DNA of 64,000 nt from Marsupella aquatica (lineage: Eukaryota > Plantae > Marchantiophyta). Below the pieces are notes generated by a model. The model worked only from the letters and a program-made list of their open reading frames with translations, was not told the DNA's origin and made no database searches. The stretch covers positions 11,086,184 to 11,150,183 of the forward strand of contig OZ316895.1 in NCBI GenBank assembly GCA_973895155.1, read 5' to 3'. The position numbers were made by a program, and so were the translations under genes. Below, piece after piece: positions 4,494 through 41,085 of the stretch (its first letter is position 1; every line of letters begins with the position of its first letter).

Positions 4494-4782
4494 GTCGACA
4501 CAGAGAGATACGTGGTTCACCTCCACATGAGGCTACGTCCACGGGAACACACAAGAGCTTTACTACACTCTAGGCCGACCGGCCATACCAAGCATCCACA
4601 GCACAAGCTCTCCCTATCTCTCAACTAGCTCCGTAACAATGAGCCTAAGTTCCACCAGGGTCTAGCATCAGCCCTCGCTATATACACAACAACACTACCG
4701 CTAACATTAGCTAAGTCCTAACCCGAGTTAGACTAACTATGGTTAGCTCATGAGACACACAAGACTAGAGCAATATCTAACA
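4494..4782 (-). repeat. 3' LTR of Tork-like Copia
   Basis: Direct repeat of 9804-10089; adjacent PPT. Confidence 0.92.
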
Positions 4783-4978
4783 AACTCCCCCTTGACTCTT
4801 GTCTTGGGGACTGAACTAAATGTTACCATATGGAATCCTCAGCGGGAAGTTCTAGACAATCACCAAACCAGGTCTCCCCCTAAAAACCACAAGGGTTAAC
4901 TAGAACTAAGCCGTAGCCAAACAAGAATGAGTAATCCACATACAAATAGTCACACATTGCTAAATAACTTTACTTGCA

Positions 4979-7900
4979 CTACAACTGCAAAACCTGCAAA
5001 GTAGCACGGTGTCTTGAGAAACTCTCCAAAGGAATCACTTTGGTAAAGGCATCGGCGGGATTGAGCTTTCCATCAATCTTGACTAGCTCAAAAGTTTTAT
5101 CAGACACTGCTTGCCTGATAAAATATTACCTGATATCAATGTGCTTCACCCTACTATCCATCACCTGGTTAGCAGCCAAGTAAAGAGCACTCTGACTATC
5201 ACAGTTTAGAGACATTTTGCCATGCTCTAAACCCATCTCCGCGATCAACTTATCCAACCAAATTGCTTCCTTTGCTGCTTCTGCTACTGCAACATACTCT
5301 GCTTCTGTAGTAGACTGAGATATGCACTTCTGCAAGGTAGATTTCCAACTGATACATCCTCCTCCAAGAGTGTATACAAACCCAGTTGTAGACCTCCTTG
5401 TATCCAGACAGCCTCCATAGTCAGAATCTACATAGCCAACTAACGTTCTATCTGATCTGTTATCAAATAGAAATCCATAGTCCTGTGTTCCTCTCACATA
5501 CCTGAGAATCCATTTCACAGCTTCCCAATGTATCTTCCCTGGATTTGACATGAATTTGCTGACCTTGCCCATCGCTAGGGCCAAGTCAGGCCTAGTACAA
5601 GTCATCAAATACATCAGACTGCCTACTGCCTTCTCATAAGGAATCTTAGCCATCAGACCTTTCTCCACAGCATCCGTAGGAGAGAAGGCCGATGATAACT
5701 TGAATGCAAAGCTAAAGGAATACTCATTGGCTTACAGTTTTCCATGTTGAATCGTGCAAGTACTTTCCTCGCATACTGGCCCTGACTCAAGCACAACTGT
5801 CCAGTATCAGAGTTCCTAAAAATCTCCATCCCTAAGGTCCCCTTGGCCTTACCAAGATCCTTCATCCTGAATTCTGCACTCAATTTCGCCTTGAGACTGT
5901 CAACCTCAGATTGATCTTTAGCCACAATCAACATGTCATCCAATCACATAGATCACCAGAATGATGAAACCAAATACATCATTCTTGACTGATTTCGTAT
6001 ACAAACAAGGATCATACACCATCCTTGTAAAACCTTGAGCAAACATGAAATCATCAAACCGCTTGTTCCACTGTCTGGGAGACCGCTTCAATCCATACAA
6101 GGACTTGAGCAATCTGCAAACTAAGTTCTCTTGGCCCTTCTTCATAAAAACTAGTGGCTGTCTCATGAAGATCAACTCTTCCAAGTTGCCATAGAAAAAA
6201 GCAGTAACAACATCCATCTGATCCATCACCAGACCAAAAAACACAACAAGCTGACACAAGATCCGAATTGTGGAATACTTAGCCACCGGTGAAAAGACCT
6301 CATTGTAATCCACTCCTTTCTCCTGAGTGAATCCCTTGGCAACAAGCCTTGCCTTGTAGATCTTGTCTCCACCCTCTGAAGGACTGTCGTTCAACTTGTA
6401 AATCCACTTGTTGTCCACCACTTGCTGACCTCTTGGAAGCTCCACCAGCTTTCATGTCTTGTTGTCACTCAAAGATTGCAACTCCCTCTGCATTGCTGCA
6501 TTCCACTCATGCTTCTGCTCTGAAGCACAAGCCTCGCTGTACGAAGAAGGCTCTCCTTCTTCCAAGATCAAAGCCATGTCATCATCATCAGGTGCAATGT
6601 CAATATCATCTAGCTTAGATGAGTCTGCCCATTGACCATACCTGGTAGGAGCTCTAGTAGAACGACTGGAAGTTCTTCTAGTAGATGACTCAGGCTGATC
6701 TGCTACTGCTGCTGGCTGAATTTGAGGTACCCCAGCAACAATCTGCTCCTCTTGTTCCATCACAGGAACCAGCTCCAAGCTCAGAGCTTCTCCATCTCTC
6801 CTGTCATGAACAACATCATGACTAATCTCCCCCTCAACCCGGTCTGGGATGGGAGATTTCTCCTTGTTAGTATGGGAGTCCTGAGAACTCTCCCCCTCCT
6901 TTGATGATCTGGATTCATTAAAGGACACATCTCTACTGACAATTAGCTTACAAGTTACTGGATCTCATAACCTATAACCCTTTACACCTTTCTGATAGCC
7001 AAGGAAAATGCACTTCTTTGACTTGGACTCCAGCTTGAAGCTGGGAAGGTGTAAGCATATAAGCATCACATCCAAAAATCCTTAGATGTGAGTAATCTGC
7101 TGGACGCCCGTACCTCATTTCAAATGGCGTCTTGAATCCAAGAGAACTCGATGGAGAAAAATTTACCAAATAAGTTGCAGTGTTGACAGCTTCAGCCCAA
7201 AACTCATGTGGTAAGCATGATTGACTCAACATACTCCTCGAGCGGTCCAATAGTGTTCGGTTGAGTCTCTCAGAAATACCATTTTGTTGAGGAGTATAAC
7301 TTGTTGTGAGATGGCAGGTAATCCCCTACTCCTTACAATATGTTCCAAATTCACCAGAACTGTATTCACCGCCGTTATCCGATCGAAGATATCTCACCTT
7401 ATTACCAGTCTGATTCTCAACTTGGGCTTTCCACTCCTTAAAAGTGGCAAAAATATCAGACTTACTGTGTAGAAAGTATATCCACACATACCTTGAGTAA
7501 TCGTCAATGAACGTGACATAATATAACCGTCCAGAATGTGAGGGAGTAGGGGCTGGACCCCACACATCACTATGTACATACTCAAGTACCTCCTTGCTGG
7601 TGTGAGTTCCAACTCCGAAGGGTTTCCTATGCTGCTTCCCTAGCACACAGTGCTCACAAAATTCCAACTTACAAGATAGCAAATTAGAAAGTAATCCTTT
7701 CTTCTGAAGAATAGCCAAACCTTTTTCACTCATGTGGCCCAAACGAAAGTGCCACAGCTAGGCCGTCTCCTCATGAGATAAGGTTACATTGGCTTCATCA
7801 CAAACTACACTGCCCTCCAAAATGTATAGATTGCTATGTCTATTTCCTTTCAATACAATTTTAGTACCAGTTGAAACCTGAAGGACACCATTAGCAGAAC

Positions 7901-9803: not shown

Positions 9804-10089
9804 GTCGATACAGAGAGATACGTGTTCACCTCCACATGAGGCTACGTTCACGGGAACACACAAGAGTTTTACTGCACTCTAGGCCGACCGGCCATACCAA
9901 GCATCCACAGCACAAGCTCTCCCTATCTCTCAACTAGCTCCGTAACAATGAGCCTAAGTTCCACCAGGGTCTGGCATCAGCCCTGGCTATATACACAACA
10001 ACACTACCGCTAACATTAGCTAAGTCCTAACCTGAGTTAGACTAACTGTGGTTAGCTCATGAGTCACAAGACTAGAGCAATATCTAACA
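9804..10089 (-). repeat. 5' LTR of Tork-like Copia
   Basis: Direct repeat of 4494-4782; begins TGTTAG on the minus strand. Confidence 0.92.
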
Positions 10090-10720
10090 GAAGATAGTTC
10101 GGAGGCGAAAGATCCAACTACCTCAGGGGGAGAGGCAGAGGCTGCAAAGTTGGAGGAAGCCGCGGACGAGGAAGATCAAGCTTCACCTACACCCGTGGAG
10201 GAACGGGAAGACCAGGAAGACCAGCCCAACAGGGCAATCCATCCCGACAATACTCAGGAAGACCCGCCGTGGAGTGCTTCTGATGCGGCACCAAGGGCCA
10301 CCCACATAAATTGTGCCGCATTGTGACGCCGCCGGTACGGCAGTTAATGAGTGATTCGGTCTTGTGACGCCGCCGGTACGGCGGTTAATGAGTGATTCAG
10401 TCTAACTGCGCTCGGCACGCGTGTTAGGTGGGTCTTAGGCCGCTATTATTAGCATAACGACAGTATTTAGGTAATCATTAGGGGTAGGACATCATTAGGC
10501 AATAAGGGGGACTTCAGGTTCGGGCTGGCGGCGGGTCGCTATTCGCACACCCGGGTTACGAGCGTGGGAGGGCCCCTCCCTCGGGTCCGTATAACAAACT
10601 TAAGGAAGCGGCCACTAACGCACGCTGACTCGGACCGGCGGAGTGGCCGGTACACCACAAGCGTGAGCGGTTCAGCCTATGGGCGTCGAGGAGACGTCGG
10701 GGATCGACAAGCCCTCAAAG

Positions 10721-10727
10721 TATAAAA
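10721..10727 (+). promoter_or_regulatory. TATA box ~108 bp upstream of the A1 LTR gene (equivalent in A2 at 25749-25755)
   Basis: TATAAAA conserved in both copies in a GC-rich context, upstream of ATG 10829 / 25857. Confidence 0.55.
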
Positions 10728-11090
10728 GGGGAGCCAACCCTTTGTAGTGCACCAGTCCATCAGTCCGCGCGCCAGCTTCGACCCCAGCTCTCTCGTTCTC
10801 TCTAGGTCGCCACTACTATCTCCTCTGAATGTCGCACACGATCCTCTCCAGCTTGGCCATTCGATTCTGGACGCAGTTCCTATCTACCGGAAGGCACTTG
10901 GCCGATTCATTGAAACACGCCAACCCGCGCCGATACAAAATCGAACGCGAATACGAGAGAGCCATCCGCCTAGCAGGACGACACCACTACATCCTTAACT
11001 TTGACTACCTGTCTCAGAGCGAGCTTTACCGACCAGCAGAGGTATCTGGGTACTTCTTCAACGGGGACAAATATATCGGGTTCTGGGAAG

Positions 11091-11388
11091 CTCAGGGGTC
11101 TCACTATACGGATGCCTCCCTATCACCTGCGACGTTTTTAGGCCTCGGACCCCCTAAAATGTAAGAAATTTTTTTATTTTTTCAACCCCTATAAAGTTGG
11201 AATATTCTTGGAATATTCCAAAATTTTGGTTATAAGGACCCTAAGTCTTCTTATAAGTCTCAAAATTGGATTTAAAAGACCCTATTGTTCTTCTCAGAAA
11301 ATTCTTAAGTCTTCCCTTTGAACCAATAAAATGACCCTATACTTCGTCGCACGTGATATGCCATTTTTGTGGAAGTGAAACCCCCGAG
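11091..11388. mobile_element. 298-bp MITE with 15-bp imperfect TIRs and 8-bp TSD
   Basis: TSD CTGGGAAG (11083-11090, 11389-11396); TIR CTCAGGGGTCTCACT / CTCGGGGGTTTCACT; absent from the homologous site in A2 (~26111). Confidence 0.93.
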
Positions 11389-13080
11389 CTGGGAAGCATT
11401 GCTTCGGCTTCCGGACGAGGTCTTCAACATCCCGAGTACAATCGACCTGCAGCGACATCACTTCGACCACATCCCTGCCCAGGTTCGGGCTGTCATTAAC
11501 GGCGAGTCCAGTACCAACCGTTCGACAAGGGCGTCCGCACTCGCTTTGGAGAACTTCTACCAGCACCTGTAGAGCTTCATAGGAACTCGGCCATCGACCA
11601 ACATGACCAACTCAGCCGTGCTCGTACCCGTACCCGTGCCCATGCAACCCCAGCCTCAACCTCAGGCTCAGCTTCAGCTTCAGCCTCAGCCGCAGCCTAG
11701 CCAAACCCCACCACCTATCACCCAGCCAGCACAGGTACGCTCCGTCATCAACGCTGTGGATCTTAGCGATGACGACGAGGCTACCCCACCCTTGACCAGG
11801 CGGCCCAGAGGAACAAGCGCTCGGGGGGCCGATACTATATCGTCCCCACCCCCTGCTCCGACCCCAAGAGCGGCCCTAGCAGACAACCTGGTGACCGTGG
11901 CCGCCCCGGGCCCGTTACCAACGACAGTGGCACTCCCCAGGCCCGATCGGGAGGATGGGGAAGTATCACCTTCCCCGAGTCAGTCACGGGGAAAGAAGAG
12001 GAAGGAATCCGCCACTGCATCCGGGTTACCATTGGCCACGGTAGCCGTAGCCAAGGTGACGATGCACCGCATGGGGAAAAACGTTCACAGCAACATCCTC
12101 CATCCCAAGCATGCGGTGTACCTGAAGACTCAGGGATTTGAGCACCTCGCCTCTCTCCCCTGGAACACTTGCAGGTACTACGGGGAGGACATGACAGAAT
12201 TCGTCAAGAATTATGACGACGTACGTCAACAGACTCGGCTGCGGGGAAGGAATATGTCCCTCACAGAAGAACGGCTCAAGATGATCTTCGGGTTACCCGA
12301 AGGTGACCATCGAGTCGAATCACGGGCTCCCGGGGGCAAGGGGGCCAAGTACCAATCTTCAAGTTTTCCCTCAGAGGGAGCAGTAGACAACGGGTTCGTG
12401 ATGAGGACCTGCCTCATGCCCGAGATAGCTGAGCGGCTGGAGTTCCAAAGGTACGCTCTCCACATGATGGAACCCCGGGGGAGATCTCCGCCGCCCAGGT
12501 TATCCAGGTCGAGAACTATCGACCTAGGAAATGGGCGTCGTACTTCGCTAAGAAATTCCATGAAGAGATGGAGCGGCGAAGGAAGACGCTGTACATTGGC
12601 GGGAAGGCGTATTTTGCTAGCCACATCGAAATCATTCTTGAGTGGTACACCGGTTTGATCGACGAACCCTTCCCCGCATCAACGTTACAAAGCTGGTCCC
12701 CCTGGGCCCCCAACGTTATTAATAATGGACCGGACGTGCGAACGGCCGAAGGGTACATTTAAATCAATTCCAGATTAATTTTTATAATCGACTTATAACC
12801 AACAAGACCATATTTTATATGACAATCTCTTTATAACTATTCCAAGGCATCCAAAATGCCGGCCAAAATAATTTGCTTGAAGGGGGCCAGTAATATGGCA
12901 TGACACACGTCATGATGAGATTGGTCCACATGGCACGCCCTGAGTGGAGTTTAGTGTAACAAATACTTGTGGTGAATAGGATGAGTTATGAAAGTATTTG
13001 GAGTTTTGAGGGTTTAGGGTGAAAGGTTTTTGGGGGTACATTTCTAGGGGGTTTTGGGTGTTTGCAGGGCAAAAGTTTAG

Positions 13081-13272
13081 GGGGAGTACTCAATCCCAAG
13101 GGAATGAGCCCTGGAATGAGTCAAAGGTCCGGGGCAGGGGGAGTAAACAATCCCCAAGGGAATGAGTCGAAGGCCCGGGGCAGGGGCCGGGAATACTCAA
13201 TCCCCAAGGGAACGAGTCGAAGGCCCGGGGTCAAAGTGAGTCCAAGGGAGTGTCAAAGTCGGGGTCGAAGGG
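13081..13272 (+). repeat. Imperfect ~50-bp subterminal tandem repeats (3-4 copies) in the DNA transposon
   Basis: Recurring caatccccaagggaatgagtcgaaggcccgggg-like unit. Confidence 0.75.
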
Positions 13273-16200
13273 AATTAGGGCTCAGCTTCAAGCCGCCGGA
13301 TTTCACATAGTGCTACCAAGTCGAGAGGTTCGGTTTAGGCTGAGGGAAGTGGAGCTTGCAGGTTGGCTACGGACCTTGGATGAAGGAAGCTATGGGGCCT
13401 AAATGAAATGTTGCGGGTGGAGGCCGACACTTGATGCTTGCGAAAGTGGCGTTTGACGCAAAGCGGGACGTTGCAAGGCTGGGAGGCGTGCACTGGCGGG
13501 ACCGACTGTGGGAGGCACACCTTTTTTGGAGTTTTGTTTAGGGGTAACTTTCCTTACACTGCCCACTGTTTACGTAGAATGATCATACTTTCCATTGTTT
13601 ATGCATGCATACACTTTACTAACTATGAAAGCTCGTAACCTACTACCAGCTATTGCCCGAGCTACCGTCGATCTGTAAGAAGGGTGAGGCGCGGGTTGAG
13701 GTGTTGTTGTGGCTATTGTTGATCTGCGCTTAGTGCCGTTTGTCTGCTGGAAGCCCGGCCAGCGGGAAGCCCAGGCATCTGAAAGAGGTCCGACTCCCTC
13801 TGCTCACTATCTTACTCGGCTCACTACCTTACTCCGCATAGTACGTGATTTCAAATATTTTGGTATGCACTGCACTTCCCGCTCCACTTTCGACTATGGT
13901 CAACTCCTCTTTGTTTTGAAATTGCGGCTCACAGCAGGGCTGAAATGTTGCAGAAAATGAAAGGTGGTATGCCTTGGGTGTTGTGGGAAGCGACATTGTC
14001 TATGTAAGGTTTGCTATTGTTGCTATTGGAGCGCAGCCCCGAGTATGCGTGCAACTGCAGACGGTGTCTCAAGCTGTCTGTAGGAGGCCCACAAATCCTA
14101 GCATGCTGCAATGCAAAAAGGTCCAAATCAGTGTCTTGCCTTTTCACCACCCTGCACACCCTCTGCTCATTGTCGTTGTCTATGCAATTTAGTTTTTCAT
14201 TGTATCCTGAAGCTTTACAAGCTTTCATGTTGAGTCTGGTCGTGGCGTTTTCCCGGGCGTTTTGGCAATCCTGTGTTAATTGAATGTTGGGCCCGACTGT
14301 ATCTGTTGCCGCTGCCGTTTGGAATTTGTTGGATATGGTGCTCTCTGCTGATTCCCACATTGTCGTGCTCAGTGCTGTCATCTTGTTAATGTGGGCTATG
14401 GCTTACTGATCCGTAAGTCTACTCGCAAGCAATCCAGATAATTTTATGTTCTAATGTGTGACAGGAAATGTGCTGTCTCCTCTTTCCTCTTTGCTTGACT
14501 TATTCCTTTGCTTTTGATCTTGTCCGTGTATCTCAATCTTGGGCAGCTATTTTCATTTACATAGTGACTGTAAAGCTTTGCTAGTTGCTTACATTGTAAT
14601 GGTATTTTGCTCTCCATTACAGTTGTTCTTCTGACTTGTTCGATGGCATTTGACTGTCCAATACAGCGATGAGCCAGCTGCGTTGAGTTCTTTCAATTTG
14701 ATCAGCTGTTGGGAGAGCGTTCGGGACGTTGAATTTGAGCTGGTGGCCTCCGAATTGTTGAGATCAGTCAGTCTTGGGTGAAATCCAGTGTTTGCGTGAA
14801 AAGGTCCGTGCTCTTTGCTCTTGACGTCTCTGTTTGACTTGGACCCTCAATTTGTTTCACGGGGATTGCAGCTTTCGTCTTTCATAGAGTCCAAGTCTTT
14901 CTCGATTACATTACTGTGTACTTGTAGATGTCTTCCAATCGGAGGTACGCTCTGTGTTTCACAGGGATTACAACTTTCATCTTTCACAGAATCCAAGTCT
15001 TTCTCGATTACAAGGCTTCTTGTTTAATGTGGGTGCCAATGCCTGTGCAGTTGTAGATGTGTTTGGTTTTCTAAATGCTAATATTTTTTGTGATTGCAGA
15101 GTTTTTTGTTTGGGTGAGCGCTGTCCACCTCAAAAGACTACAAGCGATTGCAACAATCAGGTCATTTTCAAACTATCTAATCGTTTCTTTTGCACAATGT
15201 CATAGTGATTTTCAAATCTATTGGTATATCATTTGCTCTTGTTCAATCAGAGTAGCAAAGCATGGTGAACTCCTATTTGTTGCTCCATCGTGGCCTGCAT
15301 CGTGGTTAAATTTGTGCTTCAAATGTGTGCAGAAGTTGTCGCTCTTGCTGTCCGGGCATTTTACTTGTCAAATGTGCGGCTACTGCTGCGGAAGTCCCTG
15401 TGGAAGGTGTCTGCCATAGGCCAGTGGAAGGTGTCTGCTTTTGGGTAGTTTGCCTCTCAGTTCTCCTTTGTGTCCATTGTACTAGTCCAGGAATAATTGT
15501 GGGGTAGAAATGTCGTTGTTTGATCGAGAACCACAATTAAGAACTTTGGTATATGAGATGGGAAGCGATGGACGTAGCAAAGCTGAGCTGAGCTGAGAGT
15601 AGATAGAACAATTTTGCATCACGGCAAAGCGATGAAGAAGATTGATCATGGCCAATTTTTCCGATCATGGCTCTAGACAACTGACATGATTTTGTCCAAT
15701 TCTCACATCCGATGACACAAGCAAACCAGTATTACAGAGTAGTAAGTGGCTTTGCACTGCACAGTGAGTTGTAAAAAGGGAAGTATCGACCAAAACCCCA
15801 CTCAAAGATTTAGATGAGGTCATGAATGAGGAGTCGAATACAAAGCTGAGCTGCTATGCGCGGCTACCCCGGCGCGTTGAGGAGCTGAGGGATTTCTTGT
15901 GTTTTGGGGTTTCGTGTTTTGGTTTTTCTTTGTTGAACGAGATTCGGCTTGCAGTCTATGCAATCATATGAGGATTTTGGTGGTCCGGTTTGAAGGTGTA
16001 ACAATTCTGCCATCTCGTTCTCCTTTTTGGCATTGACTTCAAACACAGCTTCTGCTGCTTTGCCTACATTCCCCTTCTCCCTTCCCTTGTTTCCCAAGCC
16101 AAGATAGTAATTCACGATTGATCGCAGCTCTAATCCTCATTTCGGTGTCATATTTTGTGTTGCTGGTTTGTTTACTTTATCTTGTTTGTCCGATACCAAG

Positions 16201-17767
16201 TTGCAGTACACTTGTGAGATTTTCTGTGTGTCCAATAAGACCTTTCTCTTAACCCCTCAATCTCAGCCATTCCATCACTCAACTCCTTTAATCTCATATG
16301 GATCGATCCAAGCGAGAGGCATCGATTTCATGCTCCTCTGCTACTTCTGCGCCTTGTTCCTGCTCCTTTCACAGCATTTGTAGGGGCAGGGACTAGATGG
16401 ATTTTGAGCAATTCGAACAAGCAGCGGATTGCATTATTCAAATAACCCATTGAAATATCCTATACAGATTGCAATATTAAAAAACCCACTTCATTTGCTC
16501 ATTGCAATAGTATTGCGTAACTTTATTTTATCACCGAATGTAGCAATTCTCTTAGTAGGTCATTACTGAAATGCGGGCTGAAATGGTAACAATTTCAATT
16601 GCCCATGATAATTGTGTTGCATTACTATAATGAGACGAAATTGAATTGCTATTTACTTAATGCCTTTTCTCTTTGCTTCTCACTCTTTGTAGGAGGGAGT
16701 GATCATTGAGACTGTATTACTTATGCCCCTATGCCCCACCTCCAGAAGGAAACATGTCCCACACACTGAGTACATTGTAAGGTAAGATTTGGGGGATCAT
16801 TGATGTTCCTGTATATGGCAATGCCTTCCTTTTCCTGGCATTACCCTTCTAAATAGTCCCACTGCAAACTATTTTTAAAGATATTCCTTAAACTCATTTT
16901 TTGTTGTCATTTACACAGATACTCATACACCTCTGAAGTCAGGAAGGACAGACGCCCCCAAGTGTTGGGTTCCACCATCACAAGGTATCCAATCAATTTT
17001 GCATTTTGTACTATTTCCTTCTGGATTACCGTATCTGTAATGTCTCCACAGACGCTAATTGACAGGCATTGTGTGTTGCTGAGGTAAGTTTTCAGCTTTT
17101 CATTTCCAGGTCCTGTTTGCAATTTCCTTCCCTGCTATTGCAAGTGTTGGTTTGCAGGTTCCTCAAGTTCATTGGGACCCTGGGGAACTAATGCCCCCAG
17201 AGGAGACTTGCTGGAAGTGATGACCCAGCAGTCTAGCGCCCCTTGAATGAGAGAGCAGGTTGCCTGGGAGGGGGGGGGGCCTTGGAGTTGATTGCCAATG
17301 GCATTCCTGATTAGAGCCCAAAGTGTTAGGATTTGGTTGGTCCGGGATTGGCAAAGAATCCAAATTCTTGGGGCATTTAGGGTCGATAGGGACTAAGTCC
17401 AAGTACACCGTGTTCGAGTGGAGGGAATTGGAGTGTGGGCAACCCGACTGTACATGCTAAGCACACATGAGCATGTTACAGATCCCAATCCCTCTAGTGC
17501 TTACATTGACATTGGAATCCTTGTCAGCAAAGGGGCCACCCTTCCCACCCGAGATTTCTCGGAGAAAACTGACTTGGATCTGTAGAAGCCAATCACCAAG
17601 AGCAATGGCCGGGATGGGGCAAGGCTCTCTTGGGGGTTGGTCCAATGGATGTGGTCTCCCAAGCAGTGGGCTGCTGTAGATGTTCTGTACTAGGGTATTT
17701 GATTGGGAAATGCTTGAATGTGACATGTCCATTGTATTTCTTGCAGGTCTGAATCTGTGATTTTTTC

Positions 17768-20700
17768 ATGCCGCCTGTGCCTGTATTTCTCGTTGACCAT
17801 GAGTCAGGGACCAGAAAACACTCTGGGACCATTAGTTGTCTCCCTGGATGGACCTTGGCGGATGCTAGGCAGAAAATGGTGGATTTGGAACTTTGGGACT
17901 TTGATTTTGATTTTATTGATAGCGTGGGAGGTTGTAGATTGCGTGCTGCTTGGGAAAAAGGCAACCTCATTGATGATTGTGATGGAAAGATTGTCATCAT
18001 CCCAAAAATACAGTCTCTGCCCATCCAGAAAGTGGGGGTAGATGTTGGAAGCAGCAATGCCTCCAATGCTGAGGCTCTGAGTAAGAGCGTTAGTGACAGA
18101 GAGTGGCACACTGAAGTTAGGGTAGAACCTGAGATACAGTGGGGACAACAGGACTTGCCTCTACCTGTTTCACCCCCAACTTCACCTCTCCCTAATGTAC
18201 CTGTGGATGATGATCCACATGTGAGTTTCCAGTCAACAACTATGTCAAATGATCTGGCCAAGCTCTGGGTGTCCAGTGTTGACAAGTTGAAGGAGCATAT
18301 GGTCTTCATAAAGTGTGAGGACCACAAGTGGAGCGTCAAAACTTGGGACAATGGTGGTGTTCCATGTGGTAAGATAGAGTGTTGCGAGTGCAACACTAAT
18401 ATATCTGGATCATCTAAGTATGTTATGGATAGGGTGTCTGTCACTAATTGTTTCACAAATTTCAAACAGAAGCATTTGATCACCCCAAAGCATGCCAAAA
18501 ATGTGGCACATAATAGGGGGCAGAGAGTAGACTCTGTTGAGATCAGTCGAAGGGCTGCAGCTTCCTCCTTGAACGATCGTGCAACTCTTGACATGCATGT
18601 TCAGATAGTTGAAAGGCTCAATGAATCTGAGCCTGTGTCCAAACCTACCTTCTACATTGTAGGTGATGTTCAGAAGGAGCCTGTGGAGAAGTTAGAGCGG
18701 TTCAGAGTGGGGTGCCATTTTTGCTCTGACGTGTTCACTTTGGTACCCAAGCAACGTAATCTGGAGGTTAATCTGAAATCCCATTGCATCTCTGCAAATC
18801 ATCTATCAGTAGTGGCTAGGAGTTTGAAGCCACCACCTGGTGCACCAATACTGTCAGGAAGGTCAGGCAGACCTCCCAAGGATGATAAGAGGGATGTTCG
18901 CCAAAGAACCATTAATGGGTTCTTAACCCGGCAGGCCAGAGATATTGCTTCCAGCAGCCGGTCAGGAGGGACAGCTGGAGGGAGTGGTTCAGGAGGGAGT
19001 GGTTACAGTGGAGGTTCAGGCCATTCAGGGGATGTGACAGGAGATCCAGGTAAACCCCACCCTTGGTCATTGTTGTGTTGGGGATTGTGGCGGAACTCAG
19101 TTCAATATGGTGCAGTAATCAGGCCTATCAAGGATATCCTATTAGATCAGCCAAAGGTTGATAGAGCATGGTACGCAGAGTCAGGGGTAAAGGCAGAGGT
19201 GTGGTGTCTTCTAGGCCAAGAATCTTGTTTGATAGAAGGACTGTTCAGGCACGTGAACTGTAGTAGAGCATCACGGCTTCTTGGTGGTTTTCAAGATCTG
19301 ACTTGTGAAGAATGTTACAGTATTGCAAGGATGGGTGACTTCCGATTAAGAGCCTTTAGAGAGGACATTGCAGTAGAGAAAAGAGGTACTCGAGGAACCG
19401 GTAAGGGTAGACGGTTGGCATATCTCACAATTCCTGAGATTCAAGAACAAGCCAAAACTTACAAGAGAAACATTTCGTCTCTCAGAAAATGTCTCAGAGC
19501 TCAGCAACACCGCCTGTGCATGCTGGGGGCCCGAGTCCCCACTTTGAGAGATCTTTGCAAAGAGTCTGGAAGTAGGAAAGACATGTACAAGTTTTGCAAT
19601 GACATAGTCTTGGCTCACCAGCGTGGTGCATTTGGTGGGAGAGAGGCCCTATGGGACTTGTTGCGAGATGTAGCTGCAAATCTTAATAGGAAGAAAGAAG
19701 GAAACACCTTTCGGCCTGGCACTAAACTTCTTTCCCAGATATTGTTCCAACACGGTGGCAGGCGTGTGGTGGACTGCTTGCAAAGTAATGCATTAGGCCC
19801 TAGTCTGAACACCCTTCAACGGGACAGGAGAGCCATGGCTGTATTTAGGCCTGGTTTGCATGCTGACCAGTTCAAGTTTGTTGCTGCTGTATACTCTCAA
19901 CTAAAGCAGAGGATGGGGATCACAGGTCCCGTGCCATGCTATTTGGCAGAAGATGAGACCTGTCTTAAGCGGACAGTCAGGTGATTTCATTCCCCTGGAC
20001 AACATCCTACAGTCTGTAGTAAATTTTTGGCTGTTATCCCTCTCCTCAATAGGTCTGTGGCTGACCACTATTGTGGATGGCTGTGTTGCAGATGGCAACC
20101 AAAACATGACACCTTATTGGGGTTTTGTGGGTTGAAAGAGGATCACCAGTGTGTGGTTGGCTTGACAATAAAGGTTGGAGCAGGAGAGGAGGGTTTCAGC
20201 AAAATCACTGATACCTTTGAGAATTACAAAATTGGAAACCAGGCCAGATGTATAGTAGTAAATCCTCTTGCAGAAAGATTTCCTAAATTTTGCATGGTAG
20301 CCATGAGTACATGCGGTAAGTTTACTGCAGATTTTGTCAATCAACAATGGAAGTCCACAGACACTTTGTGGGCTAAATATTGTCTAGACTCAGTTGGTCC
20401 TCTCTTGGGTCATGCTAGTGATGGAGATGCACGAAGGAGAAAGCTGATGCTAGAAGACTACACTGGTCAAAGCTCATATCAAGGGCAAAGACAGAATTTG
20501 AGATGGGAAGGTTGGCTATTGAGCCACTCATTCACTACCAATGGACGTCATACACATGCTGTTGGTTTACATGATCAGGATTACATTCATAATGGAAAGA
20601 AGTTAATAAACCCACTTGATTCTGCTGCCAGAACTTTGAACCTGGGAACAGAGGTGGCTGGAATCAGTAACTTGGACACTCTCCAACGTTTATATAGCAA

Positions 20701-22501
20701 CTTGGATCATGGGTTGAACAAAGGTGATGTTACACGGAATGATAGACAGAATTGGGCCAGTGCACAACGATTATGTAGTAGAAAAGTTGTGAAGGCACTA
20801 AGAATGCTTCGTGAAAGGAAAGATGCAAGAGTTGAGCGAACTCTGGGGACTGAGATGTATCTCACAATATGTGGTGATTACTTGGATATCTTTATGAATC
20901 CTTGTCTCACCTTGAGAGAGCGGGTTGTTCTCTATGCCAAAGTTAGTTTCTTTTTTCGCCTTTGGCGATTATGGTGTTTTCATGGAAATCATAGTGTTGG
21001 AGGTAACACGACAGCAATCAATTTTACTGTGAGTTGTGTCCCTATGCAGACATTTCTTGATATTCAGATATCTGTGCACTTTGTGGTACTTCTAATTATC
21101 CAATTCAGGGATAATTTCAGACATTTGCCAAATGTGCCATTGCATTTGACAGGATCTGATGCATGTGAACAGTTTTTCTCCAAAGTAGGAGGAATGAAAG
21201 GGAATGAGCGTAGTTATGATTTCTCTGAGTTGATTGACTGTGCAACATCGTTGAATAGGTTGGCTGCAATGGATCTCAGCAAAGGGATCAGAGGGGCTGG
21301 AAAAAGTCACAAGAAGCATTGCAATATTTGGATGAAATTGCATCCAATACCGGTACAAGTTGGTACTTCTGTTAATCCTGTAGACTACACAGGTATTGAA
21401 ACCAATGAGGAAGTTGTGGTAGCTCTGAAAGAAGGGTTACTTTTAGCCCAGACTGTAGGAATCGAGTTGCAGATGAATCCATCTACATCTTGTAGGGATA
21501 AAGTATGGTGGGAATCACCTTGGATTACTGAAAAAAAAGGGTCCAAGTTTGGAGGATGGTGTGATGTTAAGGTGGAGGATCTTGCACCTGTTGATAGTGA
21601 TGATGAAGAATCAGGCGGGGAGATCAGGCAAATTGCAGCTAATGTAACTATCCCAACACTTCCAACTGATATGGCAATGGCAGAAAGTAGTGAGATCATT
21701 GAAGATAGTGAAAGGCCAAGCATTGCAATAGTAGGGGATCATTGTTCAGCTGTTATGTCTGAAATGCATTCAGACTTGGTGTATGGACAACCTGTTCTTG
21801 ACATCAGACCAACTGTGAGTTTTGATGGTCGGACTATATACAAGAGCACATTGGTAAGCCAACTAGTTGGTAACCCCAATGTAAGTAAAGATCGTTTGAC
21901 TAGAGTGAAACAGAGCTTGTACTTCAACAATTTAGTTGATGCACCCAAAGATCGAGCAGGAGCAGTCACCATGTTCATGACTGTGGGTAGTGATTGTGGA
22001 GTTCTCTTTGCTGATACAACAGTACAGACTCGGGCCACAAGAGCCACTGAGGCTATACAAAAAGCCATGAAAGGGAAAAGAGCAAGGAAAGAATGTGGGA
22101 CAACAAATGGATATTCTGCTCCCAATCCAAAAAAGCCAAGGGGAGAACCTGTGAACGTTACCACAGTACCTGATACCCTTAAGTACACTTGGTGGATAGG
22201 GAGGGTACAATGCATCCAACGAAAATATCAGGGTCGGGTGATGGGTAGAACAAGACAATCAGTGGATTTACTTGATAGGCCTGGTGGTGAAGAAGCTGTA
22301 AGAGTTCGTTTTGAATGGTTTTCAAGGATTGGAAATAGTAAGCACAGATTTGCTTACAATGTTTGTGATCCTCAGTGGATCGATTTGGATTGTGTGATAT
22401 CAAACGTGACACTATCAGTGAATCCCACAACTCCAAATGTTTTTCATTTGCATCCCGCTGATGCAAATTTGCTGGATGATTTTGCTAAAGCCCATAAGTG
22501 A
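17768..22501 (+). CDS. P-like DDE transposase, ~1540 aa; exons 17768-19980 and 20092-22501
   Basis: GT-AG intron 19981-20091 joins LAEDETCLKRTVR-WQPKHDTLLGFCG in frame; motifs EDET, HASDGDARR, QDYIHNGKKLINPL (DxxH), DRQNWASAQRL, TGSDACEQFFS; two C2H2-like motifs N-terminally; no internal stops; further 5' exons possible. Confidence 0.82.
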
Positions 22502-25500
22502 TTGATACCACAGAAGGGTAAATGGTTATATTCTGAGACTTCAGCCATGCAAGGAGACAAGATTTTTTCTAAGGCAAGTTCTTAAGATCCTGTTTGCTTT
22601 TGTGAACAATTTGATATCCCATTTGATATGACATAGTAAAACATATGCTCATTAGGCTCACATATTACTCCACATAATAGTTTAATTTGGACAAATCATT
22701 AATGTTTTTGATGTAATTTTTTTTATTGTGTTCACTCAGGATCTTTTGAAGATGGAAGACAAGAGGAGGACATATAAGTTGAGAATTTTGCAAGAGTGTT
22801 CTCTTAGTTCAGATAGAAGTTCTGTATGCACTAAACCCTAAATGTGTGCCCGGCCTCTTAGTTCAGAACTTTTGCAAACACTCTTACATGTTTATAGCAA
22901 AATGTTTTCTAGAAATAGTGCTTTTATAAGATTATTAGAAAATAGTTGTATAAGTACTTTTACATATATGCCCTTTATAGACAATAGGTAGATTTGTAAG
23001 CACTGCTTCATGTGCTAAATCATAATGAAGCACTCTTATATGTGCTAGAAACACTGTTAAAGTTAAAGCACTATTACATGTGCTAGAACAGAGTGATTCA
23101 TTGTTATATGTGCTAAAGTTGAGTCTTCTTCTCCATTCCAACACAAATTTTTTTATATAGATACCTATTTTTCTATGGTATACCTTTAATGAGTTTTGTA
23201 TATTTTTTAATATTTTTCAAAAATTTATAATATTTTAAGACCTTTTTAAATTTGATTAATGGTAGATTTATAATTTTTGCAAGGGGTAAATAAATTCTCT
23301 AAAATTAAGTTTTTAAGAATAACAAGAGATAAATCTATCGGTGACCAAAAATAATAAGGGGTATGTGATAAGGGGCTGTACGCACGTATACCCCTTACCA
23401 ATACAAAGGCTGGGGGCCCAGGGGCTGGTCCCAGCTAGGTGGGTTTTTCCGGCATTGGAGAGACGGCCCCAACCCGAGGCCCGAAGTCCAGTGGACACGC
23501 CAGCTTCACCCACCCCACCTCCACAAATAGCTGTAATCATAACCGAGGAGGCGCCGGAGGCGCCGGAGGGGTCGGTCGTCGCAACCGTTGATGCGACCCA
23601 ACTAGCCGGGCTAAGTATAGAAGTTGGTACGGCAAAGGTCTTACCCGAACCCGGGTCTCCCAAGGACCCACTGGTGGCAATTCCAGAGAACCGGACATTG
23701 CTGCAGGAGGACACTCCAGCCCCTTCCAACGTTATGTCCCCAGGGCTGGACGTCACTGCCCCGGCCCCTGCGCGTGTTGACGTCTGCCCGTGCCCAAATC
23801 CGGACAAGCACAACTTGGACCACCTGGAACTCTTCGTACAGGGTACGTTTCTGAACGGGCTTCTAGGAGATTTCTCTCATCAAATTGCCCGGGATACCGG
23901 GGAGTTCATGGCCCGGAAGGTAGCCTGTTTCTTCAATCAGGAGTTGGTTGCCGCAGTAAAGGCAGGTCGGGCCCAGTCGGAGGCCCTTCAGAGGATAGAG
24001 CGGTACCGGGTGGAGTCTGTGTACCTAAAGAACGAAGTGGCAGCTCAAGAGGCTGAGCTTCTGCAACTACAACCCAAGGTTGCAGCCGCCGATGAGTTGT
24101 TAGCAAAGGCGCACGCTCTTACCGCCCTAGTCGAACAGGCCAAAGCTGGGAACGAGGCCGAGATTACATGACTCCGGAACCAGATTGACAGTTTGAAGAA
24201 ACAAGCTGTCACTTGGCAGAAAGACCTGGAGGAGGCCGAGGAGCGAGCCCAACGGGACACGGCGGAGATAGCCACGCTGTAGGCCGAGATAGCGCGGCTC
24301 CAAACCGAGGCCGAGAAGCAGGATCAGCTGGCGGCTAAATTGACGAGCGACGCCCAGCAGCTGGAGGAGGCATGTCAGGAGGCAACAGAGGAGACGGACG
24401 CGGCGAGGCGAGAGAACGAATCTCTACTGGACCAGGTCCAGCTCCTCAAAGCGGACAATGACAGGCTTCAAAGGCAGCGGGATGGCCGTTCCCATTCGGG
24501 CGGCTCTGGCAAGCGTGCCAGGCATTAGCGGCGGAGTAGGAATAGATTAGGATTAGGATTGGCTTAGTCAGGCTCTTGGGACAGGCATCTGCCTTAGGTA
24601 CAGCAGCGCTGCCCTGCTGTCCAGCCTGCGTAGATTAGGATCTTCTAATAAGACACAGCCATTTTCCGGCCTGACTGTCAGCTTAGTTAGAACCTTAGTC
24701 AACGAATCTTCGGCGAGAGGACACCCTGCCCCTCGGCTCTTAGTATTTAGTGCACCCCTCGGTAGAGGCAGGGGGGGTTTTTAGTTTCAGAGTCGGACAT
24801 CCGCGGGATATGCGGGGAGTCCCGACCTCTGGGAATGAAAGAGTACCAAGGGGAGGGGGTAGGACTAAGCTCGTTGGGCGAGTGCGGAGCCGGGCTCCGT
24901 TGTAGTGTGCACCCTCGGCCTTGAACCTGTTCATTCCAGGGCTGTCGGGTCAACTAAGTGTACGCATATGTTCCCTTTGTAGTAAAATCCTTTCCCATCA
25001 TTTTCCTTCATGTAAATCGAGATTGTATGCATGTGTGCGCATATGTGTGTGGGTTTCTTGTATATGGGTGGCAGCGCCAGGCCGAACGCACTACCCGAGA
25101 CATGCACAGGGTGCAGCCTGCGGGTAAGTGGTTGCGAGCACGGGTTGGGGACCTGTATCATCGAATCCGGATCGAAGGCGGACAGCACGAAGGCTTAGAA
25201 GTCCTTAAGCCGGGGTCGATCCTGCTATCGACTAAGGTACGTTTCGGCGGCGGAACACAAACCATACCTAGGAGGTGTCCGTATTTAGCAGTAGGCGCAC
25301 TTAGCGCTAGTTTACGAGAATAAGGTGCATTACGTGCTTCCCTTCCTGCCCGAACCCTCAGATTTACGAGGGATGTGCCCGTCTAAGCTGAAGTCTGAGT
25401 TAAGGCCAAAGCCTACGACGTGACAGGTCTAAATACGCTCGGCACGCGCGTTAGGAATGTCTTAGACCGCTATTATTAGCATAACGACAGTATTTAGGTA

Positions 25501-25856
25501 ATCATTATGGGTAGGATGTCATTAGGCAATAAGGGGGAATTCAGGTTCGGACTGGCGGCTGGTCGCTATTCGCACACCCGGGTTACAAGCGTGGAGGGGC
25601 CCCTCCCTCGGGTCCGTATAACGAACTTAAGGAAGCGGCCACTGACACGCGCTGACTCAGACCGGCGGAGTGGCCGGCACACCACAAGCGTGAACGGTTC
25701 AGCCTATGGGCGTCGAGGAGACGTCGGGGGATCGACAAGCCCTCAAGGTATAAAAGGGGAGCCAACCCTTTGTAGTGCACCAGTCCATCAGTCCACGCGC
25801 CAGCTTCGACCCCAGCTCTCTCGTTCGCTCTAAGTCGCCACTACTATCTCCTCTGA

Positions 25857-28487
25857 ATGTCGCACACGATCCTCTCCAGCTCGGCCATTCGATTCTGGAC
25901 GTAGTTCCTATCTACCGGAAGGCACTTGGCCGACTCATTGAAACACGCCAACCCGCGCCGATACGAAATCGAACGCGAGTACGAGCGAGCCATCCGCCTA
26001 GCAGGACGACACCACTACATCCTTAACTTTGACTACCCGTCTCAGAGCGAGCTTTACCGACCAGCAGAGGTATCTGGGTACTTCTTCAACGGAGACAAAT
26101 ATATCGGGTTCTGGGAAGCATTGCTTCGGCTTCCGGACAAGGTCTTCAATATCCCGGGTACGATCAACTTGCAGCGACATCACTTCGACCACATCCCTGC
26201 TCAGGTTCGGGCTATCATCAACAGCGAGTCCAGCACTACCCATTCGACAAGGTCGTCTGCACTCGCTTCGGAGAACTTCTACTAGCACCTACAGAGCTTC
26301 ATAGGAACTCGGCCAGCAACCAACATGACCAACTCAGTTGTACCCGTACCCGTACTCGTACAACCTCAGGCTCAGCTTCAGCCTCAGCCGCAGCCTAGCC
26401 AAACCCCACCACCGATCGCCCAGCCAGCACAAGTACGCTCCGTCATCAACGCTGTGGATCTTAGCGATGACGACGAGGCTACCCTACCCTTGACCAGGCG
26501 GCCCAGAGGAACAAGCACTCAGGGGGCCGATACTATATCGTCCCCACCCCCTGCTCTGACCCCAGTAGCGGCCCCGACAGACAACATGGTGACCGTGGCC
26601 GACCCGGACCCGTTACTAACGGCAGTAGCACTACCCAGGCCCGATCGGGAGGATGGGGAGGTGTCACCTTCCCCAAGCCAGTCACGGGGGAAGAAGAGGA
26701 AGGAATCCGCCACTGCATCCGGGTTACCATTGGCCACGGTAGCCGTGGCCAAGGTGACGATGCACCGCATGGGGGAAAACATTCACAAAAACATCCTCCA
26801 TCCAAAGCATGCGGTGTACCTGAAGACTCAGTGATTTGAGCACCTCGCCTCCCTCCCCTGGAACACTTGCAGGTACTACGGGGAGGACATGACAGAGTTC
26901 GTCAGGAATTATGACGACGCGCGTCAACATACTCGGCTACGGGGAAGGAGTATGTCCCTCATGGAAGAACGGCTCAGGATGATCTTTGGGTTACCCGAAG
27001 GTGACCATCGAGTCGAATCACGGGCTCCCGGGGGCAAGGGAGCCAAGTACCAATCTTCAAGTTTTCCCTCAGAGGGAGCAGTGGACAACGGGTTCGTGAT
27101 GAAAACCTGCCTCATCCCCGAGATAGCTGAGCGACTGGAGTTCTTGAGGTACGACCTCCACATGATGGAACCCCGGGGGGAGATCTCCGCCGCCCAGGTT
27201 ATCCAGGTTGAGAACTATCGACCTAGGAGGTGGGCGTCGTACTTCACTAAGAAATTCCATGAAGAGATGGAGCGGCGAAGGAAGACGCTGTACATTGGCG
27301 GGAAGGCGTATTTCGCTAGCCACATTGAGATCATTCTTGAGTGGTACGCCCGGTTTGATCGACGAACCCTTCCCCGTGTCAACGTTACAAAGCTGGTCCC
27401 AGCTAGGTGGGTTTTCCCGGCCTTGGAGAGACGGCCACAGCCCGAGGCCCGAAGTCCAGCGCACACGCCAGCTTCACCCACCCCACCTCCACAAGTAGCT
27501 GTAGTCGTAACCGAGGAGGTACCGGATGGGTCGGGTGTCGCAACCGTTGATGCGACCCAACAGGCCAGGCTAAGTATAGAAGTCGGTATGGCGGAGGTCT
27601 TACCCGAGCCCGGTTCTCCCAAAGACCAACCGATGGCAATTCCAGAGAACCGGACATTGCTATAGGAGGACGCTCCAGCCCCTTCCAACGTTACGTCCCC
27701 AAGGCTGGACGTCACTGCCCCGGCCCCCGCGCGTGTGGACGTCTGCCCGTGCCCAACTCCGGATAGGCACAACCTGGACCACGTGGAACTCTTCGTACCG
27801 GGTACATTTCTGAACGGGCTTCTGGGAGATTTCTCCCATCAGATTGCCCGGGATACCGGGGAGTTCATGGCCCGGAAGGTAGCCTATTTCTTCAATCAGG
27901 AGTTGGTTGCCGTAGTAAAGGCAGGTCGGGCCCAGTCAGAGGCCCTTCAGAGGATAGAGCGGTACCGGTTGGAGTCCGTGTACCTAAAGAACAAAGTTGC
28001 AGCTCAAGAGGCTGAGCTTCTGCAACTACGACCCAAGGTTGCAGCCGCCGATGAGTTGTTAGCAAAGGCGCACGCTCTTACCGCCCTAGCCGAACAGGCC
28101 AAAGCTGGGAACGAAGCCAAGATTACATGACTCCGGAACCAGATTGACAGTTTGAAGAATCAAACTGTCACCTGGCAGAAAGACCTGGAGGAGGCCGAGG
28201 AACGGGCCCAGCGGGACACGGCGGAGATAGCCACGCTGCAGGCCGAGGTGGCGCGGCTCCAAACCGAGGCCGAGAAGCAGGACCAGCTGGCGGGTAAACT
28301 GACAAGTGACGCCCAGCAGTTGGAGGAGGCTTGTCAGGAGGCAGCGGAGGAGACGGACACGGCGAGGCGAGAGAACGAATCTCTGCTGGACCAGGTCCAG
28401 CTCCTCAAGGCGGACAATGACAGGCTTCAAAGGCAGCGGGATGGCCGTTCCCATTCAGGTGGCTCTGGCAAGCGTGCCAGGCATTAG
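25857..28487 (+). pseudogene. LTR-encoded gene of unit A2 (~876 codons): N-domain, Pro-rich linker, plant-transposon globular domain, coiled coil, basic tail
   Basis: One continuous frame broken by point stops; most stops are sense codons in A1 and vice versa. Confidence 0.8.
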
Positions 28488-29391
28488 CGGCGGAGTAGGA
28501 ATAGAGTAGGATTAGGACTAGCTTAGTCAGGCTCTTGGGACAGGCACATGCCTTGGGTACAGCATCGCTGCCGTGCTGTCCAGCCTGCATAGATTAGGAT
28601 CTTCTAATAAGACACAGCCATTTTCGGCCTGACTGTCAGCTTAGTTAGGACCGTAGTCAGTGAATCTTCGGCGAGAGGACACCCCGTCCCTCAGCCCTTA
28701 GTATTTAGTGCACCCCTCGGTAGAGTCGAGGGGGGGGGGGTTTAGTTGCAAAGTTGGGCGTCCGCGGTATGTGCGGGGAGTCCCGACCTCTGGGAATGAA
28801 AGAGTACCAAGGGGAGGGGGTAGGACTAAGCTCGTTGGGCGAGTGCGGAGCCGGGCTCCGTTGTAGTGTGCACCCTCGGCCTTGAACCTGTTCATTCCGG
28901 GGCTGTCGGGTCAACTAAGTGTACGCATATGTTCCCTTTGTAGTAAAATCCTTTCCCATCATTTTCCTTCGTGTAAATCGAGATTGTATGCATGTGCGCG
29001 TGTATGTGTGTGGGTTTCTCGTATATGGGTGGCAGCGCCAGGCCAAACGCACTACCCGAGACGTGCACAGGGTGCAGCCTGCGGGTAAGTGGTTGCAAGC
29101 ACGGGTTGAGGACCTGTATCATCGAATCCGGATCGAAGGCGGACAGCACGAAGGCTTAGAAGTCCTTAAGCCGGGGTCGATCCTGCTATCGACTAAGGTA
29201 CGTTTCGGCGGCGGAACACAAACCATACCTAGGAGGTGTCCATATTTAGTAGTATGCGCACTTAGCGCTAGTTTACGAGAATAAGGTGCATTACGTGCTT
29301 CCCTTCCTGCCCGAACCCTCAGATTTACGAGGGATGTGCCCGTCTAAGCTGAAGTCTGAGTTAAGGCCGCAGCCGATGATGTGACACGCAT

Positions 29392-30935: not shown

Positions 30936-32691
30936 TATCGCGCCCCTAACCCGGGCCTTAAATCCGAGTTAGTTTCCTAGTGCAACCTCGACCACCAGTA
31001 GGGGTGAGGGTTCAAGCAAGGAGGTGTGTAGCGGGCCCGATTAGCCCTAAGTTGGGCTAAGTCAATATACTTACCGGTATAATACTTATGCAACTCGTAC
31101 TGGTCATAGGTATATTTGTTTTCCACCGCTAGAATATTCCCATAGTTAGTGACTCGGACTAATTCCCGGCTTGGGGCTTTCAAGCCATCGATGCAACAGA
31201 ACCTTGTGACATGCAATGGGTGGCAATCCCTACCATTAATCCGCACCCGGTACGTCCCTTGAAATGGCGCCTTTGCCCAGACAAAGCATACACACAACAC
31301 TAGTTACTCGCGATAGAATCAGAGGGAAAAGCCTAATTTACTCAACGAAGAATCAATTTACATAGTTGACTCGACTTCTAAGGGGATCAGCAGGCCTAAC
31401 GGCAATTGATGCCCAGTCTCTATGAGGTCCCGCCCTGCGCTTGCCCAGCAAGCTCGACTCTGGCTCTCACTCCTTAGTGCACTCTGACCTTGCTCAGGCC
31501 GGGACTCCCCGTGCCTCGCCTTTCCTTGCGCTAAGATAACTAAGCCTTCTCCCCCTCCCACAACGGAAGGGAAAGCCTAAATACTACGTTTGCAGAAAGG
31601 AGCCGGAAGATACTACCTCCCGGGGTAATGCCTACTAACTAACTACCCTTTGACTAACCGGCTGCACTACCTCTGACCGGCTGACCATCAGTGGCAAGGG
31701 GCGTTGACAGGGGTGGTAGTGGCTAAGTCTACTGACCAAAATCTAGTCTGTTGACGGACTCTATCCTACGTCGGCTGATCCTAATCGATCTTGTCCCTAA
31801 TTCTTCCTACTATGCCGCTAATCGGCGTCTAAGGACAACTATTCTGTCGTTAAGCCTAATCAAAAAGATGTTGCTGACTCAACTACCTTGTGCAGCGCCT
31901 GCTCACACCCTTCGCTAACCACCCCTTACGTGCATGTTGTGGTCGGGCCAGGGTTTGTCCCCTTGTCGAGGCAAGATCTCGAGCTGCCTTGATTAGAGGT
32001 GGGTCCAGGTCTTGCCCGCTAGAGGACGAGCAGGGTAATGCGGTCCTGCAAGGCCTTGTTATCTCGTACCGCCTCCTCTGCCTCGTTCACAGCTTCAACG
32101 GGCTCGGTTTGGAGCCGTACTACCTCTAGGCTGAGCTGGCCGATGGAGTCACGATGGGTCTGGTTCTGCGCCAGCAATTTATCCCGCTCGGCAGAGAGAC
32201 TAGCCACCTGTTGAGCTGGCTGCAAGAATTGGTTGTTGAGGTTGGTCAGGCTGGTAACCCGAGCCAAGGATTCTGAGCGCAACTGAAGTACGGTGTCATC
32301 CCGCTTCTTGAGATCTGCTTGCGCCTCGCTCAACTCTTGGTTTAGTCCATCCCGTTGTTTGACGGTGCGGACTAACTCTTCACGGTGGGTAGTGGCCTCC
32401 TCTTCGAGGTGTTCTACTAGCATTTGGAGGTGCCCAATCTCGTTCCCCTTTGCCATGAGTTCTTCCTCCAAGCGGCTTACGATCCGTGGTTGGTGCTCTA
32501 ACATGAAGAAGGTTGGTTGAAAGTATGTCGAGACCTGTTGCCCGATGTACGTTGCCAGCTCCCCGGCCATAGTTTGTGTGATGCCTAGACAGGAATCACT
32601 CGGCCGGTTAAGTGGGTAAAGCAGGAAGGCACCCTAGGAACACCTTAGTATAGTGACAAAACAAGGAAAATATAAACAATTAGGGGCAACC

Positions 32692-41067: not shown

Positions 41068-41085
41068 TGGCGCCGCTGCCGGGGA
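41068..41085 (+). other. Primer binding site, tRNA-Asp type
   Basis: TGGCGCCGCTGCCGGGGA, one base from the Athila-type TGGCGCCGTTGCCGGGGA. Confidence 0.8.

Follow-up and report, generated by a model that had tools for sequence, protein, structure and literature searches.

A complete DNA transposon with a predicted P-type, THAP-less transposase in the liverwort Marsupella aquatica

A 64,000-nucleotide stretch of the Marsupella aquatica genome (assembly GCA_973895155.1, contig OZ316895.1, positions 11,086,184 to 11,150,183 of the forward strand; hereafter the window, whose numbering is used throughout) carries at 12700-23423 a 10,724-bp element that an initial annotation, made from the letters alone, had described as an intact P-like DNA transposon of a land plant. 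Our analysis indicates that this is very probably a complete DNA transposon bounded by terminal inverted repeats (TIRs), with an unbroken spliced gene for a predicted cut-and-paste transposase of the P superfamily, in a lineage without the THAP domain. The element, its ends and its insertion site are arranged as follows.

10322-29386, no strand: host structure, a tandem of two 4-kb units resembling long terminal repeats (LTRs), 91-95% alike, with TG..CA ends and a 5-bp target-site duplication (TSD), CGCAT; the element lies inside unit 1
12692-12699, + strand: left TSD of the element in the 8-bp reading, GCTGGTCC; one copy at the empty site near 27392
12700-12712, + strand: left TIR, 13 bp, perfect, CCCTGGGCCCCCA, an inverted pair with the right TIR
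12713-17767, no strand: 5-kb left arm, without a recognisable gene on sequence inspection and similarity searches
23411-23423, - strand: right TIR, 13 bp, perfect, paired with the left TIR; its 3'-terminal base is G
23424-23431, + strand: right TSD of the element, GCTGGTCC, the same octamer as on the left side

The 12-bp core of the TIRs was found at two sites only in the window, the two element ends, and the chance expectation of a 13- plus 8-bp match is about 0.0005 per 64-kb window. Over their first 30 bases the two ends match at 20 positions, and no internal 12-bp inverted repeats were found in the terminal 400 bp of the element. The target occurs once in the adjacent unit 2, at about 27392, and contigs in all four public runs skip exactly 10,732 bases, which is the element plus 8. 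These contigs are empty paralogues and not a polymorphism, because the flanks are a high-copy repeat, with a depth about 100-fold or more above that of the element's left arm in 4/4 runs. The inverted ends, the octamer on both sides and the empty site of the initial annotation were all recovered. Its "paralogous LTR" also exists as an empty repeat copy, although it proved to be the second unit of the tandem; the two units abut without an internal region under one 5-bp TSD and each has open reading frames (ORFs). A 361-aa ORF at 11573-12658, within the LTR-like unit, had no significant Pfam hit. In three of the four runs, contigs join the transposase gene at 22285 to the element's own left end at 12699, the two being separated by 7 other bases; insertion of one copy into another, diverged one may account for this. 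The reading of the transposase gene as a domesticated host gene was ruled out by the TIRs, the TSD and the empty sites.

The transposase gene occupies the right part of the element, and its features are listed below with their residues.

17768-19980, + strand: coding exon 1, residues 1-737, 50.6% identical to residues 1-731 of Calypogeia fissa protein P0324
18380-18802, + strand: two predicted matrin/U1-like C2H2 zinc sites (C205 C208 H236 H242; C316 C319 H339 H345), in conserved columns
19076-19315, + strand: predicted C4 zinc domain (C437, C498, C513, C516), Cys in 33/33, 55/56, 55/55 and 55/55 aligned rows
19649-19837, + strand: helix-turn-helix (HTH) matching that of the Drosophila P transposase, in the window's own exon-1 model
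19952-19954, + strand: first catalytic Asp, D729 (AEDET), at the end of the first strand; D in 103/105 relatives aligned at the column
19981-20091, + strand: predicted GT-AG intron, 111 bp, in frame; its removal gives collinearity with P0324 (737/731, then 739/733)
20092-22501, + strand: coding exon 2, residues 738-1540, 56% identical to P0324 residues 733-1525; fold from relative P0012
20126-20314, + strand: near-invariant C750 H756 C758 C812, a predicted extra zinc site in the catalytic domain (conservation 0.96, 0.99, 1.00 and 0.98)
20420-20422, + strand: second catalytic Asp, D848 (SDGD), D in 117/120
20579-20590, + strand: DxxH signature, D901-H904, D/C in 120/120 and H in 120/120
21158-21169, + strand: D1094, the likely equivalent of the GTP-contacting D528 of P, and catalytic Glu E1097; D in 91/103, E in 100/103

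The frame opens with an ATG at 17768 and closes with a TGA at 22499-22501, and its single in-frame stop lies inside the predicted intron. Splicing would yield a stop-free product of 1540 aa, as annotated initially, and the five motifs then singled out (EDET / SDGD / DYIH..K..INPL / DRQN..SAQRL / GSDACEQFFS) are all present in that order. The predicted splice is supported by homology, since in locus L001 the corresponding codon is the site of a 119-bp GT-AG intron and P0324 is collinear with the spliced product; a frameshift or readthrough at 19982 was ruled out on these grounds. In loci L003 and L004 the coding sequence runs straight through this position without an intron.

Exon 1 encodes, in order, a low-confidence beta-grasp-like start, the two C2H2 sites, the C4 domain, a coiled coil, the HTH and the first catalytic Asp, while exon 2 is predicted to hold an RNase H core with a helical insertion, an acidic linker and C-terminal domains. 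The predicted series is that of a P-type transposase: a coiled coil, then the HTH, an RNase H fold into which a helical domain is inserted, and a C-terminal domain. D729, D848, D901-H904 and E1097 are conserved in 97-100% of aligned relatives; we infer that D729 corresponds to D230 of P, and D1094 and E1097 are three residues apart, as are D528 and E531 of P. The cluster C750 H756 C758 C812, between the first two Asp residues, probably binds a metal. The matrin/U1-like label of the C2H2 sites is likewise tentative and draws on weak fold matches (Z 4.5-5.7) to zinc-finger chains of SF3a and TUT4. These sites are confined to members of the plant clade described below, where 8/8 full-length proteins tested align from residue 115 or earlier; outside it, 3/3 tested proteins align only from residue 485 onward. 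The C4 domain is kept across the lineage and precedes the coiled coil, the position of THAP in animal P transposases; neither Pfam nor the fold searches returned a match to it. Consistent with the initial annotation, Pfam found no THAP domain at E<=1 in exon 1 or in the relatives scanned, and the Cys patterns there are those of the C4 and C2H2 sites. No SUMO-protease domain was found in the window protein by Pfam.

The left arm gave no blastx match to the fetched proteins and no blastn match to the fetched loci. It contains short subterminal tandem repeats at about 13080-13240, and splice-like sites (AG acceptors ending at 16692, 17051, 17157 and 17746; GT donors near 16782, 16985 and 17084) that could delimit candidate upstream non-coding exons. 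In three runs contig depth rises several-fold at 16884-17750 and peaks near 17260 and 17635, possibly because of a shared or nested repeat.

The assignment to the P superfamily is carried by the fold. The core was modelled for a relative, Riccia sorocarpa P0012, whose core shares 50% identity with that of the window protein (122 sequences in the alignment; AlphaFold model with pLDDT 85.6 and pTM 0.81). At E<=0.001 Foldseek returned just two matches, each of them the P transposase of Drosophila (E 5e-10, TM 0.72 on the target). Among 48,161 chains compared by VIA-align, P transposase chain 6p5a was best (Z 19.9, root-mean-square deviation (rmsd) 3.1, 390 residues aligned, model 1-485 on chain 144-565). 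The alternatives named in the initial annotation scored far below it, as the runners-up were RAG-like (Z 8.5), the IS256/MULE relative ISCth4 (Z 7.3, rmsd 6.6), Transib (Z 6.3), the hAT transposase Hermes (Z 5.5, rmsd 7.8, Foldseek E 0.14) and piggyBac (Z 4.0). hAT and MULE elements produce TSDs similar in length to that of the window element and share with it the C/DxxH signature and the helical insertion domain, but their fold match to P0012 is far weaker. Four Pfam scans of the window protein and its relatives found no hAT family, no MULE domain and no KDZ or CxC family, and the fold lists included no KDZ/Zisupton structure. The exon-1 model of the window protein itself (pLDDT 75) had no fold match at E<=0.001; by VIA-align its residues 633-695 superpose on 6p5a 137-199 (Z 5.8, rmsd 2.7, 62 aligned, rank 17), below HPF/dsRBD-like rows (Z about 7) that may reflect a common fold. 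THAP structures were not listed among its fold matches, which does not exclude a THAP fold. In the ESM Atlas the second hit was a P-transposase cluster (0.95), and the ten best family-bearing hits all share its family or clan. The P-family Pfam model PF12017 matched 2/40 members, one of them above the cut-off. The fold, the protein-language-model neighbours and these weak hits in relatives all agree with the P-type identity proposed initially.

The closest named relative of the window protein is P0324 of the liverwort Calypogeia fissa (1529 aa), with 68% core identity, which agrees with a land-plant host. Exon 2 gave 80 matches, 19 with an organism name (16 Riccia, 3 Adiantum), and among 120 listed of 254 profile matches the 22 named ones comprised 19 liverwort sequences, 2 fern sequences and 1 coral sequence (Desmophyllum), with no seed plant. 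The profile search reached 986 clusters at E<=1e-30, 3,239 at 1e-10 and 5,753 at 1e-3, the weaker of which may include low-complexity matches. A word-based search with the N-terminal 470 residues found no homologue among 7,991 candidates, although the fetched plant-clade proteins do align over this region. We built a midpoint-rooted tree of 38 sequences chosen from the fetched proteins, which holds this lineage only, with no catalogued P sequences. The window protein grouped with Calypogeia (support 100) and then with Riccia (99), inside a clade of 16 that contains all named plant rows (98); the coral protein (33% core identity) fell outside. The same plant clade was recovered in a 99-sequence FastTree. 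Its label is partly inferred, as 6/16 members bear names. The lineage is not plant-specific, in contrast to the plant lineage first proposed: judged from these sequences, the liverwort and fern clade sits inside a large lineage with a named coral protein. The pattern fits vertical descent, which is the likely mode of inheritance of the plant clade in non-seed plants. Outside the plant clade, Pfam detected added SAP, C1 and Tudor domains in proteins P0102, P0106, P0059 and P0080; one alignment member, probably P0080, gave a weak OTU-like hit.

We scanned 40, then 38 of the 80 relative loci, the longer ones, for TIRs and TSDs. In most, the only pairs were chance ones in AT-rich or GC-repeat sequence; 6/38 had plausible C(C/T)C-G-run ends. 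CCC or CTC termini were seen in L003, L004, L005, L032 and L037, and end-motif matches in L026 and L039 were rejected as spurious. L004 is fully bounded, with 29-bp TIRs and an unambiguous 8-bp TSD that has no symmetric alternative; the relative it carries at 192-6287 is complete, 6.1 kb long, with an intronless core and a match of about 1500 aa to full-length proteins. CCC-G-run-TACTCC ends surround the transposases nearest the coral protein (L032 965-8467, L037 and the start of L027), and this lineage may be what moves such repeats in genomes of cnidarian type.

We compared the element with described P elements, using published sources (cited by PMC number) that were available in part and to whose available parts our statements refer. 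With the Drosophila melanogaster P transposase (PDB 6P5A/6PE2; PMC7776569) it has in common the predicted coiled coil before the HTH, the split RNase H with its helical insertion domain, the DDE triad, the D three residues before the catalytic E, the 3'-terminal G and, in the favoured reading, the 8-bp TSD. It differs in having C4 and C2H2 zinc sites where P has THAP, a domain restricted to animals (PMC7776569), in the distance between the first two Asp residues (119 residues with the CHCC motif between them, against 73), and in protein length (1540 against 751 aa), TIRs (13 bp with a CCC start, against 31 bp) and element length (10.7 against 2.9 kb). The zebrafish THAP9 P-like transposon shares the 13-bp TIRs and 8-bp TSDs but is animal and THAP-bearing (PMC7776569). 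Fungal P elements are on record (PMC3164196, PMC5751038); likened by description only, P-1_MLP, P-2_MLP and P-1_PSt of Repbase (PMC3164196) are likewise non-animal with 8-bp TSDs, and the nearest Atlas clusters to the window lineage are basidiomycete proteins; Chlamydomonas P elements and Novosib (PMC9641971) are green-lineage elements of the P kind, again by description only. TSDs of the P superfamily are 7-9 bp (PMC3698922), and the duplication is 8 bp clearly in L004 and by preference in the window, with a 6-bp reading possible. On the features tested, the element falls within the P superfamily in the broad sense and outside the animal THAP clade (P/1360/Galileo/THAP9).

In P transposase, GTP is bound by D528, K385, K400, V401, S409, F443, D444 and N447 and contacts the terminal G (PMC7776569). 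Spacing suggests that D528, S409 and D444 are retained as D1094, S967 and D1003, whereas K400/V401 correspond to N958/W959, F443 to L1002 and N447 to M1006, and no conserved Lys was found near 943-945, the position of K385. Family-wide, the S409 position is S in 51/120 and the D444 position D/E in 68/113. We lean only slightly towards the view that the transposase of this element would use GTP. In P elements, cleavage depends on GTP and the ends are cut with a 17-nt stagger.

By analogy with Drosophila P, the C4 zinc domain, together with the two plant-specific C2H2 fingers, would replace THAP in holding the element ends, and the HTH would read the TIRs. The coiled coil may pair transposase subunits. 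The DDE site would then excise the element and join the 3'-G ends at an 8-bp stagger on the target strands, which repair would turn into the 8-bp duplication.

Several observations weigh against the P assignment or against parts of it. The catalytic core that was modelled is that of a relative and not the window's own; no P-family Pfam model matched the window protein; PF21787 was found in 4/38 members with a best E of 2.6e-4, below the cut-off; PDB sequence searches with exon 2 and two profiles did not reach the P transposase at E<=10; and the first Atlas hit was an unnamed basidiomycete fungal cluster (0.96). The element ends in CCC, and P elements usually have 5'-CA termini. The GTP-site equivalences come from spacing, without residue-level superposition. 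CpG is depleted in the transposase gene (observed/expected 0.28), as in methylated, silenced DNA, and suggests long methylation; the unbroken frame together with the perfect ends points to a young copy. An alternative is that the lineage shares the fold of P and transposes differently, for example without GTP, and ranks as a sister superfamily of P or belongs to a C/DxxH group without a solved structure, Kolobok, Dada or Novosib for instance; the structural alignment of P0012 with 6p5a has 14% identity, there is no sequence-level PDB hit, the zinc sites, CCC ends and partial GTP site are its own, and at E<=1e-30 its 986 clusters make up a large and coherent set. Structures of Kolobok, Dada, Novosib or KDZ transposases were absent from the fold lists (to our knowledge none has been solved), and those groups were tested through Pfam and TSD only; Dada elements, for their part, insert into small-RNA genes. 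The HTH, split RNase H and insertion domain nevertheless align with P as one unit over 390 residues, and P-family Pfam models and Atlas clusters are the neighbours of the lineage. The C/DxxH signature itself marks hAT, P, MuDR and Kolobok as well as Dada (PMC9587614), and Novosib and Dada have no Pfam domains (PMC5751038), but Kolobok has TTAA duplications and RR..YY termini (PMC9587614), unlike the GCTGGTCC duplication and C..G ends of the window element. We regard a sister group as quite improbable beside membership of P.

The extent of the ends was weighed in the same way. A 14-bp TIR with a 6-bp TSD (12699-23424), an alternative overlooked in the initial annotation, is equally consistent with the empty site. 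It would make the ends CCCC and separate the element from P in target cutting; it fits exactly at the window locus, and the second junction, from 22285 to the left end in three of four runs, likewise has C at 12699. At L032, nearest the coral protein, 8 bp fits, as do 6 or 7; L003 has both ends without a TSD; and both ends were visible in only 3/38 scanned loci. Given symmetric ends, however, L004 permits 8 bp only, and in three of the five relatives the base after the right end is not G (A in L003, C in L005, T in L037), so that the ends there are the three bases C(C/T)C and a fourth C is excluded. A G...C target preference would produce the identical overlap. The relatives thus make an 8-bp TSD the likely one, in line with the initial annotation, and the 6-bp reading rather unlikely. 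That the element arrived recently from an animal or fungus, or that the window is not plant DNA, is very unlikely: coral neighbours and, by the Atlas, fungal neighbours exist, but the core is 68% identical to a liverwort protein against 33% for the coral protein, the liverwort and fern copies cluster at support 98-100, L001 shares the intron, and the window encodes a xyloglucan fucosyltransferase domain. A P element of non-seed plants or corals might already be catalogued in Repbase or Dfam, with only this copy new, and we hold this to be a serious prospect, if short of even. The lineage is large, and many transposon families are described only in Repbase Reports. Repbase includes fungal P elements with 8-bp TSDs (PMC3164196). 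On the other side, P is not among the six land-plant TIR superfamilies that the available part of PMC9033089 lists on the basis of Repbase as of March 2022, P-type miniature inverted-repeat transposable elements were reported from Chlamydomonas (C. reinhardtii) only among 21 plants (PMC9641971), and the named relatives are annotated as "hypothetical" or "unnamed", with one UniRef entry called just "Transposase". The literature searched, which did not cover Repbase, Dfam, key reviews and genome-paper supplements that could list P in non-seed plants, held no report of a land-plant P element, and the available parts of PMC7466625, PMC8226300, PMC10288648, PMC5718144 and PMC13182070 contained nothing on plant P elements.

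The remainder of the window holds other genes and repeats. A Ty3/gypsy element at 36560-52822, young in appearance, has long repeats 98.7-99.3% alike on either side of a 1873-aa gag-pol frame (41277-46898). The xyloglucan fucosyltransferase domain (E 9e-50) lies in a 614-aa frame at 60876-62720, where CpG is not depleted. A 1073-aa open frame at 32638-35859 had just a weak coiled-coil Pfam hit, and a 290-bp direct repeat (4494-4782 and 9804-10089; 96% alike, 5.3 kb apart) may represent the two LTRs of a small element.

If the P assignment is true, land plants would gain a seventh TIR superfamily through this intact P-type element and its liverwort and fern relatives. With its short ends and intact gene, the 10.7-kb element is a candidate tagging or large-cargo tool for bryophytes, and the L004 relative is a compact candidate for activity tests. 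A broader view, which we consider unlikely but state for its consequences, is that these elements are an unrecorded pan-eukaryotic branch of P, present in land plants since the liverwort/fern split and intact in non-seed plants, in which THAP was swapped for other zinc domains and transposition is GTP-free. Because Pfam misses the lineage, its copies are likely to be filed under "unknown" repeats in the genomes of non-seed plants. Furthermore, the terminal G is kept while about half of the GTP residues appear changed, and the need for GTP outside animals thereby becomes testable.

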